The notes under the pieces: generated by a model
Database searches by the model: none
Told to the model about the DNA's origin: nothing
What the model saw: only the letters and a program-made list of their open reading frames with translations
Assembly: GCA_963842525.1 (NCBI GenBank)
Contig: CAWJGT010000009.1
Location: 224,001 to 288,000, forward strand
From: an uncultured Holophagales bacterium
GTDB lineage: Bacteria; Acidobacteriota; Thermoanaerobaculia; Multivoradales; UBA5704
Direction: 5' to 3'
Length of the DNA stretch: 64,000 nt
Position numbers and translations under genes: made by a program
In this document: one piece after another, positions 16,483 through 21,519 of the stretch
Layout of the letters: every line of letters begins with the position of its first letter
Position numbering within the stretch: the stretch's first letter is position 1

Positions 16483-16714
16483 CTTCGTCTCCTTTCTGGA
16501 GAAAACTCCGGCATCGGGATGATGCCGGAATGTCTGTATCGCGTTCGCTTCTCTCGACTCCCGTTCGTCTTCATGAGCGTGGTAGACTGTTCATATGGAC
16601 TTTGCAAGATCAACTGATGCGGATCATGCACCATAGTGTCCATGGTGTCAACCCCCGTCTCCCATCCTGTCGACCGTATTGGGATAGAATTTCTCCAAGT
16701 CCTGGCAATTGAAG

Positions 16715-17188
16715 ATGACGAAGATCCCGAGGAGCCTGGAGGAGGCGCTGCGCGACGGACGGGTGATCCCGTTCGTGGGGGCCGGCGTGTCCATGGCCGT
16801 GGAGCGCGCCGGGGGTGGACGGATCTTCCCGAGCTGTAAGCAGCTCCTGCTGGACGGCGCGGCGCGCCTGGAGCGGGAGGGCAGGAACGCCAACGTGGTG
16901 CGCGGCCTCGTCGAAGACGACCCGCCGGACTACCTGCAGGCGGCCAAGAAGCTACGCGACAAGCTCGGTCCTCTGTGGGGCGCTTTCTTGAAAGATGCGA
17001 TCGACGTCTCCCGCGCGGAGGTCTCCGACGGGAGCCTTGCGCTCGCGCAAGCGGTATGGCGCCTCGGCAGCCGCCTCGTCATCACCACCAACTACGACCG
17101 GGTCCTCCGGTGGGCCTGTCCCGATGCGTGGCGCGACGACCTCAAGAGCTGGGACGTCAACGCCCCTGCCGAGCAGGCCGAGTACCTC
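16715..17188 (+). pseudogene. N-terminal fragment of a SIR2-like (SIR2_2) domain protein
   Basis: IPFVGAGVS and ITTNYD motifs; truncated before the catalytic xHG. Confidence 0.75.
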
Positions 17189-17431
17189 GTCCGGCTCGTC
17201 AACCTTCGGCAGAGGACGTGGCACCCAGATGAGCTGCGACCGCGCCTGGCCGCGCGCCAGCCGCACCTGTTCCTGGGGATAGGTGGCCTCCGGCTTGCCG
17301 TCGACCTCCCGGCCGGCGTAGCCGTCGAGCAGGTGGACCGAGAGCCGCGCCCGCTCAGACCGTTGCCGCAGGAGCCCCAGGCGGTGCTCCTCGACGGCCA
17401 TCCCAAGGACGAGAACGTGCTCGGCGAGGTC
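17180..17431 (-). pseudogene. Internal fragment of an unrelated gene (resembles the C-terminal region of TIR-associated proteins)
   Basis: Open frame ..ARLSVHLLDGYAGREVDG..TYPQEQVRLA..QLIWVP..; ends at the 17432 motif. Confidence 0.4.
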
Positions 17432-17452
17432 GAATGTTCGCCTGGCACCTAT
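17432..17452 (+). repeat. 21-bp motif GAATGTTCGCCTGGCACCTAT (copy 1; unoccupied IS110 target-like site)
   Basis: Matches the reconstructed IS insertion site and copy 3 at 19633. Confidence 0.85.
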
Positions 17453-17474
17453 CTGGGCACGGTGGACGGCCTTC

Positions 17475-17586
17475 CCCTGGGACCGCGGGCGTCCCGCCCG
17501 CGCGGATTCCCAGCGACCGGCGAGTTGGCGTTAATCCTGGACGACCCAAGCCCAAGGAGGGTGGGCGGACGCCCGCGGTCCCAGGG
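17475..17586. repeat. REP-like inverted pair CCCTGGGACCGCGGGCGTCCCGCCC ... GGGCGGACGCCCGCGGTCCCAGGG
   Basis: Seen directly. Confidence 0.75.
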
Positions 17587-17730
17587 AGAACCGACGACAA
17601 GGAGCGGCGAGGGTTGCCAGAGGTGCCGGAATGTTCCGGAATGTTCGGCTGATGATCCTCTAGAAGGCTCCTCCCTTCTGACGAGCCGCGATAGGCTCGT
17701 CGGGAGACCAATCCCTGAAAGGAGGAGCGC

Positions 17731-18747
17731 ATGGGACTTTACTGTGGAATCGACTTGCATTCAACCAACAGCTATCTCGTGGTGATGAACGAGCAACTGC
17801 AATCGGTCCTCAGCAGGCGGGTGGCCAACCGTCTGGAGGCGGTCCTGGAATCCCTGGAGCCCTTCCGAGAGCAGATCCAGGCGACCGCCGTGGAGTCCAC
17901 CTTCAACTGGTACTGGTTGGTGGATGGCCTCATGGAGGCCGGCTACGAGGTTCGCTTGGTCAACACCTCCGCTGTCCGCCAGTACGAGGGCTTGAAGTAC
18001 GTCGATGACCGCCATGACGCGCGGTGGTTGGCGCGCCTGCTCCACCTCAACATTCTGCCCACCGGCCACATCTATCCGAAAAAGGAGCGCGCGGTGCGAG
18101 ATCTACTGCGCCGCCGAACCTTTCTGGTGCGACAGCGCACCGCCAGCTTGCTGAGCGTCAAAAATGTTTTCTCTCGCTACACCGGGGTTCAAGTTTCCCT
18201 CAACGAGCTCAAGCGCATGACGGCCGAGCAGGTCGAGGAGCAGTTCACGGACCCACACATCGCCTTGACGATCACGAGCAGCCTGGCGATCGCCCGCACC
18301 CTGAAAGACCAAATCTCTGGCATCGAGAAAGCTGTCCTCAAACAAGCCAGGCTGAGGCCCGAATTCGAGCTGCTCGAGAGCATTCCCGGCATCGGTCTGA
18401 CCCTTGCCCTGACCATCATGTACGAGACGGGATCCATCGCTCGCTTTGCCGAGGCCGGCCACTTCTCCTCCTACTGCCGCTGTGTACCCAGCCAGCACCT
18501 CAGCAACGGCAAGGTCAAGGGCTCGGGTAACGTGCGCAATGGCAACCCGTACCTGTCCTGGGCGTTCACAGAGGCCTCTCACTTCGCCATCCGGTTCGAG
18601 CCTCTCGCCAAGCGTCTCTACGAGCGCAAGCGGGCCAGGACCAATGAGTTGGTCGCCCTGCGGACGATCTCGAACAAGCTGACTCGTGCCGCGTTCTACA
18701 TCCTGCGCGACCAGGTGCCGTTCCGGTCGGCGCAAGCTTTCGGTTGA
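17731..18747 (+). CDS. IS110-family DEDD transposase / bridge recombinase
   Basis: GIDLH, VESTFNW, DRHDA (RuvC-like DEDD); IPGIG, SNGK and GNPYL Tnp domain; AGGAGG RBS. Confidence 0.95.
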   Translation: MGLYCGIDLHSTNSYLVVMNEQLQSVLSRRVANRLEAVLESLEPFREQIQATAVESTFNWYWLVDGLMEAGYEVRLVNTSAVRQYEGLKYVDDRHDARWLARLLHLNILPTGHIYPKKERAVRDLLRRRTFLVRQRTASLLSVKNVFSRYTGVQVSLNELKRMTAEQVEEQFTDPHIALTITSSLAIARTLKDQISGIEKAVLKQARLRPEFELLESIPGIGLTLALTIMYETGSIARFAEAGHFSSYCRCVPSQHLSNGKVKGSGNVRNGNPYLSWAFTEASHFAIRFEPLAKRLYERKRARTNELVALRTISNKLTRAAFYILRDQVPFRSAQAFG

Positions 18748-18751
18748 TTCA

Positions 18752-19090
18752 GGTGGGGGACAGGGAGCCTGCAATAGGTGCTGGGCGAAAGAACCCTCCG
18801 TGGCTGATTGGCCTCTGTCTTCCACCGTTTTTGGCTCTTTTGTCGGAGATGCGCCCAGGTCGTGAGCCCGAATGTGCTGGCACCTCTGAACCCTCCTTCG
18901 GGGGGAGGAGGTAGCCTTATTGGTTGTCCTGAACCTTGGACACGAACCTGGAACCGAAGATTTTCTGGGGGCACGCAAACCGTGCCAGGGGCGGGTCGGA
19001 GCCGTCACCGGCTCCGACCCGCCTTGATCCCGATGGGTGGCTGGTGCGGATCTCCGCACCTGAAGCACAGCGAGACTACGGGCGCGCAAA
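18752..19090 (+). ncRNA. Predicted bridge/seek RNA of the IS110 element (two target-like loops and one donor loop)
   Basis: Guide AATAGGTGC is the reverse complement of the right flank; GGCTG equals left flank plus core; ATGGGTG equals the element end; closing stems visible. Confidence 0.8.
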
Positions 19091-19506
19091 CCCGACACGG
19101 GAGCACATCTTGCCGGAACGAGCCGTTCTTGAAACGAACACTCCCGGGAGGGAGACGTGTGGGTCGTTGACAAGAGCCTTCTAATGGGTGTGCTGGCACC
19201 TCTGAACCCTCCTTCGGGGGGAGGAGGTAGCCTTATTGGTTGTCCTGAACCTTGGACACGAACCTGGAACCGAAGATTTTCTGGGGGCACGCAAACCGTG
19301 CCAGGGGCGGGTCGGAGCCGTCACCGGCTCCGACCCGCCTTGATCCCGATGGGTGGCTGGTGCGGATCTCCGCACCTGAAGCACAGCGAGACTACGGGCG
19401 CGCAAACCCGACACGGGAGCACATCTTGCCGGAACGAGCCGTTCTTGAAACGAACACTCCCGGGAGGGAGACGTGTGGGTCGTTGACAAGAGCCTTCTAA
19501 TGGGTG
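18873..19506 (+). repeat. 316-bp tandem duplication of the IS right end (18873-19188 / 19189-19504)
   Basis: The two copies appear identical by eye; duplicated 82-aa ORFs appear in the ORF track. Confidence 0.95.
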
Positions 19507-19519
19507 GCACCTATTCTCC

Positions 19520-19633
19520 TCGGCAGCCGCCTCGTCATCACCACCAACTATGACCAGGCCCTCAGATGGGCCTGTCCCGAAGCGGGACGCGACGACCTCA
19601 AGATCTGGGACGTCAACGCCCCTGCCGAGCAGG
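19520..19633 (+). pseudogene. Second, diverged SIR2-gene fragment homologous to about 17063-17176
   Basis: LGSRLVITTNYDQALRWACPEAGRDDLKIWDVNAPAEQ. Confidence 0.8.
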
Positions 19634-19653
19634 AATGTTCGGCAGGCACCTAT
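19633..19653 (+). repeat. 21-bp motif copy 3 GAATGTTCGGCAGGCACCTAT
   Basis: Seen directly. Confidence 0.85.
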
Positions 19654-19701
19654 TCGGGCAGAAGGAGCGCCGGAAGCGTGGCCGAGCATAAACCAATTGA
19701 T

Positions 19702-21519
19702 ATGCCAACCGCGAAACGAATGACCGAGGTCTCGAACGCGATCGTCGTCGCGTGCACGCCGCGAGCGGCCCACGAGGCGCTCCAACTCATGCAATCCCTG
19801 CGTGACCTCGGATACGCATTGGCGGAGGCTATCATATCCGTAGATTCCGATGCCAGCGCGTTCGATTCGATCGCCCGGAACAAGCTCATCATCGTTTGTA
19901 TTGCTGCCGACTTTGAAGCTCACGACGCGTTTCTCAACAGAATCATTGATGCGAAGAGGCCCGAGCAGCAACCAGTCTTAGTGCTGCGCGATATTTACCT
20001 TGAGCAACTGCCACCTCGCTTCCTAATTCACTGCCTCAGTAGCTACTTGGAGTGGTCGACACCGACGAGCGTCTCAGCCAATGCAGTTCCGATTCTTGAG
20101 GAGTTCGTTTCGGCATCGGGTAATCATCCTCTCGTCTCGTATGCTAAAGAGCAAGCCGCAATGCCTCTTATCGAGGTCGAGTTCACTCTCAGGCAGGTGG
20201 CCCAGGGCGACTTGAATGAACTCGGAAAGCTTGGACTAGATTTTGTTTTTGAGGGTTACCGAGATCATGACTCTCGTGAGGTCAGGGAAGCAGCGCACAG
20301 AATCCAGGAGTACGCGAAGCAACACGGAGTTGACCATCAGTTCGATCTTACCCGTGACCGGAGGTTTGCCGGAGATAAATCCCTCGCCCGTGGCAAATAT
20401 TATACCGTGGCCGAAGATCAATCTGGATCTGATCGAGGAGTGCTCGTCGCGGAGCTAATGGCCTACTACAATCCCCTGCACTCCGGGATCATCGAGATCT
20501 ACGATCTGACCGTTCCGGCCTACAAGCAGGTCTTCCAGCGTAGGTATGGGCTCGAAATTTGTCGACGGGCGGGTGTCAGCTTGCCCGAGGATGGTCTCGT
20601 GGTCGTGTATTTTCTGCCAAGCTGCAAAGCCCACCCGTTCGGGCACCTGGTCAGCAGCAACCAGACTCTGGCCTTCATTACGATACCGGTGACGGTGACG
20701 ACGCAGAGAATACCGGGGGTCCTGGACCTTCGGCAGCCCGCAGTCGCCGATTGGTTCGCAAAGCACTTTTCGTCTTTGGTCTGGAACCGGGATGGGGTCA
20801 ATGTGCCGGTGTTTCCGAATAAGGAGCCAGTTAGTAACTTCCGGGAGATCCTGCCGTCTCTCTTGACACAGCAGTTAGGGGGAGGCGGGTTCACGAAAGT
20901 TGTGGGTTGGTGGCTCCGAAGACACGGTGTGCGCGGGCTTGTGTTCCCGTCCGCACGTTATGACAGCAGCTTGAAGGCTTCAAACGGGAAGTGCGTGTCG
21001 TTCAGCGGCTGGAATTTGGTTGACTATCGGGGTTCTTCCCTGGGCGACGTCGATCTACGGATAGACGTAAGCTCAACGTGGCCGGACATCATTGAGAATT
21101 CTCCCGACGGGTTGCTGGATGCGCTAATGGGGAAGCAACCCGTTCGATACACAGACGTAGACCTGAAGTATACCAGGACAGGGGAAGCGGCTGGGAGCTG
21201 GGAGGTAACTGGATTGGTTGCCCGCCGGCTCGCCACCACACAAGTCGCCAAAGTGTTCTCGCAACTGGCTGGGCTGGAGATCTCAGACGAGAGCAAGAGA
21301 GTGCTGGGTAGCTGGTTGCTTTCGATGCAGCCGAATCAGGCCCGGACAGCACACGCAGACGTTTTGATCTGGGCATTGCTCGGCGTCGAGCAGGCGAAGG
21401 CGGATATCCTCGCCTGGAAGTCTGCGGCAGAGTCAGGCAAACATCACGAGCTGGCAGGCGCTTTTGACGATGTTGTTAAGAACTCTCGAGTGTTTCCAAG
21501 CCAATCTGGATATGAATAG
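19702..21519 (+). CDS. Putative TIR-like + RES-domain protein (integron-type gene cassette)
   Basis: Lower GC; N-terminal flavodoxin/TIR-like beta-alpha pattern; VLDLR..GLVFPSAR..NLV RES signature; followed by an attC. Confidence 0.6.
   Translation: MPTAKRMTEVSNAIVVACTPRAAHEALQLMQSLRDLGYALAEAIISVDSDASAFDSIARNKLIIVCIAADFEAHDAFLNRIIDAKRPEQQPVLVLRDIYLEQLPPRFLIHCLSSYLEWSTPTSVSANAVPILEEFVSASGNHPLVSYAKEQAAMPLIEVEFTLRQVAQGDLNELGKLGLDFVFEGYRDHDSREVREAAHRIQEYAKQHGVDHQFDLTRDRRFAGDKSLARGKYYTVAEDQSGSDRGVLVAELMAYYNPLHSGIIEIYDLTVPAYKQVFQRRYGLEICRRAGVSLPEDGLVVVYFLPSCKAHPFGHLVSSNQTLAFITIPVTVTTQRIPGVLDLRQPAVADWFAKHFSSLVWNRDGVNVPVFPNKEPVSNFREILPSLLTQQLGGGGFTKVVGWWLRRHGVRGLVFPSARYDSSLKASNGKCVSFSGWNLVDYRGSSLGDVDLRIDVSSTWPDIIENSPDGLLDALMGKQPVRYTDVDLKYTRTGEAAGSWEVTGLVARRLATTQVAKVFSQLAGLEISDESKRVLGSWLLSMQPNQARTAHADVLIWALLGVEQAKADILAWKSAAESGKHHELAGAFDDVVKNSRVFPSQSGYE

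Follow-up and report, generated by a model that had tools for sequence, protein, structure and literature searches.

The described systems closest to the locus discussed here are the IS1111 elements ISEc11, ISPa11 and ISKpn4 and their seekRNAs (Siddiquee et al. 2024, PMC11187229). According to the main text of that study, the top-strand match precedes the bottom-strand match in IS1111 elements, an RNA of 82 nt suffices, and the role of the long seekRNA form 'remains to be established'. Here, we analysed a 64,000-nt stretch from an uncultured Holophagales bacterium (contig CAWJGT010000009.1, positions 224,001 to 288,000; hereafter the window), in which positions 17652-19188 are an IS1111-type insertion sequence (IS) of the IS110 family, and 440 nt of non-coding sequence follow its gene on the 3' side. 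The element shares with the seekRNA elements the non-coding region 3' of a DEDD transposase gene, the subterminal repeats, a loop of ~75 nt with the top-strand match 5' of the bottom-strand match, and natural retargeting among close relatives; the longer seekRNA form likewise extends 3' (PMC11187229). It differs from them in the length of the non-coding region (440 nt vs. 145-170 nt for the long seekRNA forms), in its terminal extensions (9 and 5 nt without the TG vs. 7 and 3 nt), and in a 3' part that appears to carry a second target-like loop and donor guides, which are absent from the main-text account, although the supplementary folds may show a similar loop (PMC11187229).

The bridge RNA of IS621, as described by Durrant et al. 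(2024, PMC11208160) and Hiraizumi et al. (2026, PMC13626964), likewise uses two guides per DNA that address both strands around the core dinucleotide. Its 'handshake' extensions, which read the partner DNA (PMC13626964), have probable counterparts here at 18807-08 (left end) and 19040 (right flank). In contrast to IS621, the RNA is located at the right end, the order of the guides is reversed, the donor guides would lie in a multiloop, and an extra target-like module is found between the target and donor modules. The predicted bridge RNAs of the IS1111 group are more similar in this respect: their donor guides are placed in a multi-branched region beyond the 3' side of the target loop, many IS1111 orthologues having predicted donor-binding bases in a multiloop. 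A second target-like loop is not mentioned in the text and legends of that study (PMC11208160). A conserved, weakly target-tracking third module is not described in the literature searched, although the supplementary folds of PMC11187229 as well as Supplementary Table 5 of PMC11208160 may be relevant here.

Domain 2 and the target-binding loop

As judged from sequence comparison, the guide-RNA region has three guide-bearing modules rather than two, i.e. loop 1, domain 2 and a donor multiloop. What domain 2 contains is a short, degenerate version of the loop-1 target TTCGGC-TG-GCAC, limited to the part near the core; it specifies no other target. The elements of the first two modules are as follows.

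18752-18826, forward strand: loop 1, target-binding loop, equivalent to the short seekRNA; its guides covary with the flanks
18773-18781, forward strand: 5' guide of loop 1, AAUAGGUGC, reverse complement of the right flank GCACCTATT
18800-18806, forward strand: 3' guide of loop 1, same sense as the left flank + TG
18807-18808, forward strand: AT of loop 1, matching the first two bases of the left end
18855-18951, forward strand: domain 2, conserved three-way-junction module, defined by matches to covariance model R1, helix covariation and motif order
18855-18864/18941-18951, forward strand: closing stem of domain 2, with compensatory changes
18865-18880, forward strand: 5' strand of domain 2
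18874-18877, forward strand: candidate 5' pseudo-guide GUGC of domain 2, complementary to right flank +1 to +4 (GCAC)
about 18881-18912, forward strand: hairpin H1 of domain 2, 5/5 pairs changed on both sides
18913-18927, forward strand: 3' strand of domain 2
18920-18926, forward strand: candidate 3' pseudo-guide UUGGU+UG of domain 2, same sense as the left flank TCGGC+TG
18926-18940, forward strand: hairpin H2 of domain 2

The stretch 18752-18951 does not lie at the right end of the IS; comparison of the flanks puts it within the 3' non-coding region, of which it forms the first half. For guides and flanks 18 copies were aligned, and structure was assessed in a 13-sequence alignment (A1) and in an alignment of 69 distinct rows (A2), the pair counts of which lean towards structure as A2 was fitted to the covariance model. 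Model R1 covers 18841-19071 and was searched in 74 sources; the 68 sources with a match provided a set of 51 elements on which the comparisons below are based. Elements were dropped if the left or right end was not found by fuzzy patterns, if the left end had more than 3 mismatches, if fewer than 9 flank bases were available or if the flank contained N; L077, L095 and L104 were left out too, since their right-end match looked wrong by eye. L054, L048, L101, L086 and L107 were kept in spite of a visibly misaligned 3' strand of domain 2, which lowers the domain-2 scores. Guide strings were taken in a family register, i.e. the 9 nt ending just before (T)GG for the 5' strand and the 9 nt ending with the conserved TG for the 3' strand, and were scored against the flanks and ends of their own element, with permuted or shuffled flanks as controls; permutation, including that within clades, does not fully remove relatedness.

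Loop 1 is the target-binding loop of the seekRNA/bridge RNA. Its identity to the element's own left flank is 0.96-0.65 at LT-1 to LT-5 and its complementarity to the right flank 0.80-0.61 at RT+1 to RT+8, with 0 of 2000 shuffles reaching the observed values at nearly all positions, and its guides are among the top pairs of a mutual-information (MI) scan of all RNA columns against all flank and end positions. Moreover, loop 1 has been retargeted naturally in the L031 group, where GAGAAGCGC and AGCCUG go with the flanks AGCC-TG-GCGCTTC, in L041, where GAAAGGUGU goes with ACACCTTTC, in L040, where CGCGUGA goes with CGCG-TG-A, and in L037. The GTGC of the loop 1 motif GTGCTGG belongs to the guide, as it changes with the target (AGCGCTGG, GGAGCTAG, GGTGCCTG), and the layout common to the family is stem, (G/A)AGCC, guide, (T)GG, hairpin, CCA(C/T), guide ending in TG, AUUGG, stem. 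One metagenome-assembled genome contains two sister IS lineages, L031-L033, L042 and L096 on the one hand and L034 and L035 on the other, that differ in both loop-1 guides and in their targets (AGCC-TG-GCGCTTC vs. TCGGC-TG-GCACCTATT), the remaining RNA region being nearly identical.

Domain 2 is structured and conserved. The four strings by which it was first delimited are all present, i.e. CCAGGTCGTG (18855-18864) and CACGAACCTGG (18941-18951) in the stem as well as GAATGTGC (18870-18877) and GGTAGCCTT (18910-18918). The closing stem is real, with compensatory changes in A1 and 8 of 9 pairs changed on both sides in A2, where 92.8% of the cells are paired and all five H1 pairs show changes on both sides. 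R1 finds the domain-2 region in 68 of the 74 sources (67 at full length, one cut at a contig end), including elements with 49-58% protein identity from many phyla, also from Pseudoalteromonas. The family counts several hundred members, with at least 545 relatives confirmed. Two small helices proposed by RNAalifold, AGC/GCU and CCC/GGG, are without compensatory changes, and a possible multiloop-closing helix, GCGCC (18850)/GGCGC (~19097), seen in a fold of 18 close sequences, is invariant there. A single-sequence fold of 18745-19000 is no better than shuffles (z -1.61, 13/200), so that the evidence for the structure of domain 2 is comparative. Pairing between the two domain-2 strands was considered by eye and discarded, being inconsistent across relatives.

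The order of motifs in domain 2 is that of loop 1: GAGCC (18765-69 in loop 1, 18864-68 in domain 2), GTGCTGG (18778-84, 18874-80), GAACCCTCC (18791-99, 18888-96) and ATTGG (18807-11, 18919-23). The repeated scaffold seen in the initial annotation is thus right in kind, but only GAGCC and (G)CTGG hold family-wide; GAACCCTCC and ATTGG are confined, in domain 2, to the lineage of the own genome, its close relatives having a short hairpin and CTTTCGAC. The domain-2 consensus is stem, GAGCCA(C), a few variable bases, (T)GG, H1, (G/A)A(G/A)CCA(C/T), ~7 variable bases ending in TG, T, H2, GGAC, stem. Accordingly, GGTAGCCTT, once taken for a guide, corresponds to the family scaffold (G/A)A(G/A)CCA(C/T) plus linker. 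A profile hidden Markov model (HMM) of loop 1 matches domain 2 in 8 of the 51 elements (E<=1), with no match in 51 reversed and 255 shuffled controls. The loop 1 model R2 was built without base pairs, as the stems came out misaligned with MAFFT and no pair was predicted by RNAalifold, and is a sequence profile only; cmsearch with the loop-1 sequence profile matched domain 2 in 1 of 12 sources (L079, E 0.02). Domain 2 is probably a paralogue of loop 1, as its layout and these matches suggest.

The 3' guide position of domain 2 is, family-wide, the 5 nt before a conserved TGT, i.e. 18920-18926; the register chosen at first was wrong, and in the family register the strand resembles the loop-1 target. 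Its identity to LT-1 to LT-5 is 0.78, 0.49, 0.51, 0.45 and 0.51, as compared to 0.29-0.37 for shuffled flanks, with at most 23 of 2000 shuffles reaching the observed value at any of these positions. Against LT-1 to LT-7 of its own element the strand scores 3.58, as compared to 2.58 with permuted flanks (0/5000) and 3.18 with flanks permuted within clades (0/5000). The 5' strand is complementary to RT+1 to RT+4 in 0.71, 0.65, 0.73 and 0.76 and drops to shuffle level beyond, i.e. the match of domain 2 to the target ends sharply at RT+4 and LT-5. In the MI scan the pairs 18924~LT-1 (MI 0.96, 0.83 identical) and 18877~RT+1 (MI 0.77, 0.72 complementary) are among the top ten. In the window element UAUUGGU-UG of domain 2 and GTTCGGC-TG would form 5 Watson-Crick pairs and 2 wobbles out of 9, the two U-for-C positions of the pseudo-guide being U:G wobbles with the bottom strand, and CGAAUGUGC would form 5 pairs and 1 wobble with GCACCTATT. 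In each of the long-branch singletons L068, L082 and L106, domain 2 agrees with the left flank at 4 of 5 bases, and a G/C difference between L058 and L040 at LT-3 is present in flank and domain 2 alike. Over the 13 scored positions the mean number of matches is 9.9 for loop 1 and 6.8 for domain 2.

The initial annotation had read domain 2 as a second target-type loop that addresses a different repeat family by guides of its own, one RNA thereby serving two targets. Layout and HMM matches agree with a target-type loop, and the variable segments are indeed unlike those of loop 1, but different guides, a second repeat family and multiplexing are not borne out. The target predicted from them, GGTAGCC-T(T/G)-GCACATTC, has no match with up to one mismatch in the 9.95-Mb genome. 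With 2 mismatches each of the two predicted 17-mers has a single match; allowing up to 3 raises this to 18 and 7, no excess over the 9-114 matches of ten shuffled patterns; the register of the earlier reading, as the pattern GGTAGCCT[G/T]GCAC, has no genomic match either. Moreover, all four full copies and two right-end remnants lie in the loop-1 target rather than in a second one, and contigs of three runs from other samples continue past the right end directly into GCACCTAT, the target of loop 1. In one of these outside contigs the left flank is AAATAAGT and then GGCTG, an even better fit to the loop-1 3' guide GUGGCUG than the flank in the window. Among the 51 family members, 47 fit loop 1 better than domain 2, two tie and two favour domain 2, one of the latter (L082) probably owing to a register slip in extraction, and the domain-2 strands, taken in the family register, resemble the same target. 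Natural multiplexing is thus largely refuted, and we regard it as extremely improbable. Of the two outcomes that were named beforehand as speaking against it, the lack of such a target family and of insertions in it was observed, whereas domain 2 is neither invariant nor unstructured.

Several observations concern sites that resemble the target of loop 1. Sites of the type ...AATAAGTGGCTGGCACC(T/C).. recur in the own genome (C3:9649, C9:144390, C9:148456, C12:67365, C22:46644, C31:39161) and look like a repeat family of empty targets that would fit the loop-1 3' guide GUGGCUG; the 10-mer GGCTGGCACC is present 71 times in this genome. Around the element, the short repeat GAATGTTCG(C/G)C(T/A)GGCACCTAT(C/T)..GGGCA has three copies within 2.2 kb, at 17434-17460, at 17625-17651 with 19507-19520 (the IS lying inside) and at 19632-19660, where AG replaces the TG core. 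In the right flank of the copy L002 (C9, about 1078290-1078378) short tandem repeats GCACTCATTTCGG(G) follow directly after the IS, and a second empty target site, GATTCGGCTGGCACTTATTT, lies ~80 nt beyond them.

Probable donor guides in the 3' multiloop

The best-conserved stretch in distant relatives is 18936-19052, which includes the candidate guides of the donor module.

18956-18964, forward strand: putative left-end (donor) guide GAAGAUUUU, complementary to the left-end top strand at 7/9 positions including one wobble
19032-19040, forward strand: right-end (donor) guide GAUGGGUG plus one base; 19032-39 equals right end + TG

Segments that covary with the IS ends, as expected for donor binding, are found outside domain 2, strongly for the right-end and moderately for the left-end guide, with two covarying hairpins between them. 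Right ends AATGTG, AATGAG and AATGGC go with GUG, GAG and GGC in the RNA. In 0.86 of the 51 elements the base at 19040 is the same as RT+1, with all four bases used, and this pair ranks first in the scan (MI 1.27); by analogy, 19040 appears to be the one-base counterpart of the published 'handshake'. The segment 18956-18964 is probably the left-end donor guide, for which the evidence is moderate: it covaries with the left end in L106 (AAUGAUCUU/AAGATCATG), L068, L040, L082 and L063, and 0, 5 and 10 of 2000 shuffles reach the observed values at LE+4, LE+7 and LE+2, respectively.

In the canonical two-loop model domain 2 would itself be the donor-binding loop, since it is a second structured loop 3' of the target loop and its GAGCC and AGCCTT resemble the subterminal repeat GAGCCTTCTA. 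However, besides the covarying segments elsewhere, domain 2 scores no better on its own left end (2.25 vs. 2.35 permuted) and right end (1.80 vs. 1.79) than on those of other elements, and its GAGCC is unchanged in L036, L039 and L041, where the repeat is GGGCC. We therefore consider a donor-binding domain 2 very improbable.

The element, its tandem duplication and its surroundings

The further features of the element are listed from left to right.

17650-17651, forward strand: left TG core dinucleotide; ...TTCGGC-TG-ATGATCC is common to four full copies
17652-19188, forward strand: IS1111-type insertion sequence, 1537 bp without cores, ends set by flank comparison
17652-17660, forward strand: left terminal extension ATGATCCTC, 9 nt, before the left subterminal repeat
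17661-17670, forward strand: left subterminal inverted repeat TAGAAGGCTC, reverse complement of 19174-19183
17731-18747, forward strand: transposase/recombinase gene, 338 aa, with Pfam DEDD_Tnp_IS110 and Transposase_20
19167-19172, forward strand: TTGACA, -35-like hexamer, read by eye; TTGAC is kept before the right repeat in relatives
19174-19183, forward strand: right subterminal inverted repeat, 10 bp
19184-19188, forward strand: right terminal extension ATGGG, 5 nt, after the right subterminal repeat
19189-19190, forward strand: right TG core; in the window the duplicated segment comes next
19191-19506, forward strand: perfect tandem second copy of 18875-19188 + TG, 316 bp

The recombinase combines an N-terminal DEDD (RuvC-like) domain (PF01548, E 2.2e-14) with a C-terminal Transposase_20 domain (PF02371, E 7e-18), both above the Pfam cut-offs. 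As in the IS110 family in general, insertion is site-specific with the core dinucleotide shared by both junctions and present once in empty sites: TG flanks both ends in the four copies of the own genome and also in the 51 relatives (CG at a few right junctions), and empty look-alike sites have one TG only, TTCGGCTGGCAC (TTCGGC-TG-GCAC). The long non-coding region downstream of the transposase gene and the inverted repeats set back by 9 and 5 nt place the element in the IS1111 group. Besides the window copy, the own genome (34 contigs, 9.95 Mb) contains three further full copies, L002-L004, which match 17644-19190 of the window at 95-97%, and several fragments. A search of 16500-20500 against Rfam at E<=1 returned, as its sole match, a chance snoRNA (E 0.39) and no family for the guide-RNA region. 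As read from the sequence, TTGACA and the left-end GATGAT (17651-17656; GATAAT in relatives) may form a promoter-like -35/-10 pair with 17-nt spacing that would exist in the circle junction only.

In a repeat search 18873-19172 equals 19189-19488 at 100%, which sequence reading extends to 18873-19190 and 19189-19506. The duplicated unit thus runs from a TG inside the 5' strand of domain 2 to the TG at the IS end, and the true right target flank, GCACCTATTC, begins at 19507. The duplication was seen neither in the other three copies nor in the three outside runs (Logan contigs) covering the right end. It was probably made by the recombinase, since one boundary lies exactly at the IS end and both lie on TG, and could reflect an unequal exchange between the right junction and an internal TG or a nested insertion that homologous recombination or the assembler later collapsed. 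As sites of such an insertion, the better pseudo-target TG 18878-79 and the position 18875-76 were both discarded, because the sequence after the first right end, GGG-TG-TGCTGG, fits only TG 18873-74. This TG is matched by neither loop 1 nor domain 2, and, speculatively, the right-end guide could pair with CGAATG, though only via three G:T wobbles.

In ISPpu9/MITEPpu9 a right-hand sub-module of an IS110-family element can likewise be duplicated in tandem via recombination at the core dinucleotide (PMC12288879). By analogy with ISPpu9 and ssr9, domain 2 might span a joint at which a minimal IS (17652-18872) meets a hitchhiking module (18875-19188) resembling a miniature inverted-repeat transposable element (MITE), its fold being accidental. 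The perfect duplication of exactly 18875-19188 + TG, from a TG in domain 2 to the IS end, is in line with this idea, as are the sub-module circles and tandem ssr9 copies reported for ISPpu9 (PMC12288879). Yet ssr9 is described as dispensable, present in a few strains only and bordered by copies of the IS end boxes (PMC12288879), whereas the segment duplicated here is part of a conserved guide-RNA region: 14 relatives are collinear with it over all 440 nt (67-80% identity), and domain 2 and the closing stem that spans the joint are conserved and covary family-wide. Furthermore, the own genome has neither a free, full copy of the module nor a short IS ending at 18872; L006 stops at 18882, where a group II intron interrupts it, and only truncated remnants are left at L007 and L013. 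A joint of two modules is thus a highly improbable origin of domain 2.

As to the broken copies, L006 (L006:1725-1937, C9) is interrupted inside its domain-2 DNA after ...GTGCTGGCA, at the equivalent of window position 18882, by an element that starts with GTGCG and matches the Rfam group II intron RF02003 (89.8 bits, E 2.2e-19). The same IS copy is split in the transposase gene, at the equivalent of about 18660 (L005:2517 and L006:1501), its halves lying on C3 and C9 and each adjoining an inverted-repeat end (GGCGACAATTAGAACTGCGGG and its complement) that belongs to another element, which suggests an insertion followed by rearrangement. Upstream of the IS, 17474-17593 is a palindromic repeat of ~120 nt with 20-nt perfect arms (17475-94, 17567-86) that adjoins the target-like site 17434-17455; it has dozens of copies of 73-81% identity genome-wide, and the family looks like a repetitive extragenic palindrome or a MITE. 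A 116-nt direct repeat (17062-17177 and 19518-19633, 92% identity) is found on either side of the IS within the open reading frames 16709-17785 and 19504-21519, which have no Pfam match and look like paralogous gene fragments around the insertion.

Possible role of domain 2

The observed part of our explanation, i.e. the structure and conservation of domain 2, its loop-1-like layout, its resemblance to the same target, the lack of complementarity to the IS ends and the lack of a second target, can be held with high confidence. In this explanation loop 1 is the canonical target-binding loop, and of the guides in the multiloop further 3' one is probably complementary to the left end and the other has the sense of the right end, the core and the first flank base. 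Domain 2, located between them, carries 5 nt of left flank + TG on its 3' strand and ~4 nt of right-flank complement on its 5' strand. Beyond this, we speculate that domain 2 would help the recombinase to hold the target-derived flanks of an integrated element, for excision or direct transfer. It would not choose new sites, because a lineage in which only loop 1 was retargeted still multiplied. The left flank + TG of a resident copy directly adjoins its left end, and in the RNA the left-flank strand of domain 2 lies ~30 nt before the left-end guide. An auxiliary donor-side role is thinkable given that the donor flanks must match the guide RNA for IS1111 elements to move, according to the main text of PMC11187229, and that a target-binding-loop (TBL)-only RNA cooperates with the full bridge RNA in circle-free direct transfer, as described for CazIS110-1 (bioRxiv 10.1101/2025.10.25.684509); excision substrates, moreover, are reported to bind across both loops (PMC13626964). 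In the direct transfer of CazIS110-1 two target-type loops act together with donor recognition, which offers a possible use for a built-in second loop of this type. There, however, the second loop belongs to a separate truncated RNA with identical guides (bioRxiv 10.1101/2025.10.25.684509), whereas here it would be a diverged, shorter-guide loop in the same RNA, so that the likeness is one of analogy. The explanation as a whole, three modules with domain 2 as auxiliary, flank-reading loop on the donor side, appears moderately probable to us; the auxiliary docking and flank-reading role taken for itself is tentative.

Several observations weigh against this explanation. The guide RNA is predicted here from the DNA sequence, A2 was fitted to its own model, the assignment of the left-end guide is based on few lineages, and the loop-1 HMM has no match to domain 2 in 43 of the 51 elements. 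In ISEc11 the short RNA alone worked, as stated in the main text of PMC11187229. Domain 2 of L036 and L041 does not match their target, and the L031 group, five loci of one genome (L031-33, L042, L096), has retargeted loop 1 with a domain 2 identical to that of L034, i.e. a matching domain 2 is not required for transposition and spread. Tracking of the target is weak: in 24 sister pairs, with every element used once, 52 left-flank positions differ; loop 1 fits both sisters at 27 of them, as compared to 8 for domain 2, and for the differing positions at RT+1 to RT+4 the numbers are 18/37 and 7/37. Finally, the 5' strand of domain 2 loses its signal once permutation is confined to right-flank clades, where 4404 and 4795 of 5000 permuted sets score at least as high as the real flanks, so that its match may be inherited.

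The weak tracking (8 of 52), the missing within-clade signal of the 5' strand and the unchanged domain 2 of the retargeted, evidently active L031 group would equally suit a scaffold or relic, i.e. an old duplicate of the target loop that is kept as protein-binding or folding module and never pairs with DNA, its target-like bases being inherited or occasionally copied from loop 1. Exchange of sequence between the loops is also hinted at by the identical 9-mer GAACCCTCC present in both of them in this lineage alone. Broad copying, however, is at odds with scaffold positions that do not co-vary between the two loops (GAGCTAGT vs. GAGCCACA in L062). The position-specific match of the 3' strand to LT-1 to LT-5 on long independent branches (L068, L082, L106, L099, L037), its survival of within-clade permutation and the sharp stop of the match at RT+4 and LT-5 also speak against a scaffold. 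A pure scaffold or relic is possible, though rather unlikely. That domain 2 truly pairs with DNA is likewise doubtful, and mixtures of the two, or something unforeseen, make up the remainder.

Programmable recombinases are being developed from bridge and seek RNAs, for which the published model has one target loop and one donor loop. Natural multiplexing is not encoded by the sequence described here, but a conserved third module that echoes the target would affect the design of minimal guide RNAs, would bear on the balance of excision and insertion, and would add a second site for off-target pairing. The covariation map supplies the coordinates of candidate donor guides and handshake bases for the clade. 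We can only tentatively suggest that domain 2 is a working third DNA-reading loop with short guides and low stringency next to the donor guides. If so, one RNA could hold two things at once, the resident copy's target-derived flanks and either the IS ends or a new target bound by loop 1, and excision control or circle-free direct transfer would be built into a large IS1111-type clade that includes the elements of Pseudoalteromonas.

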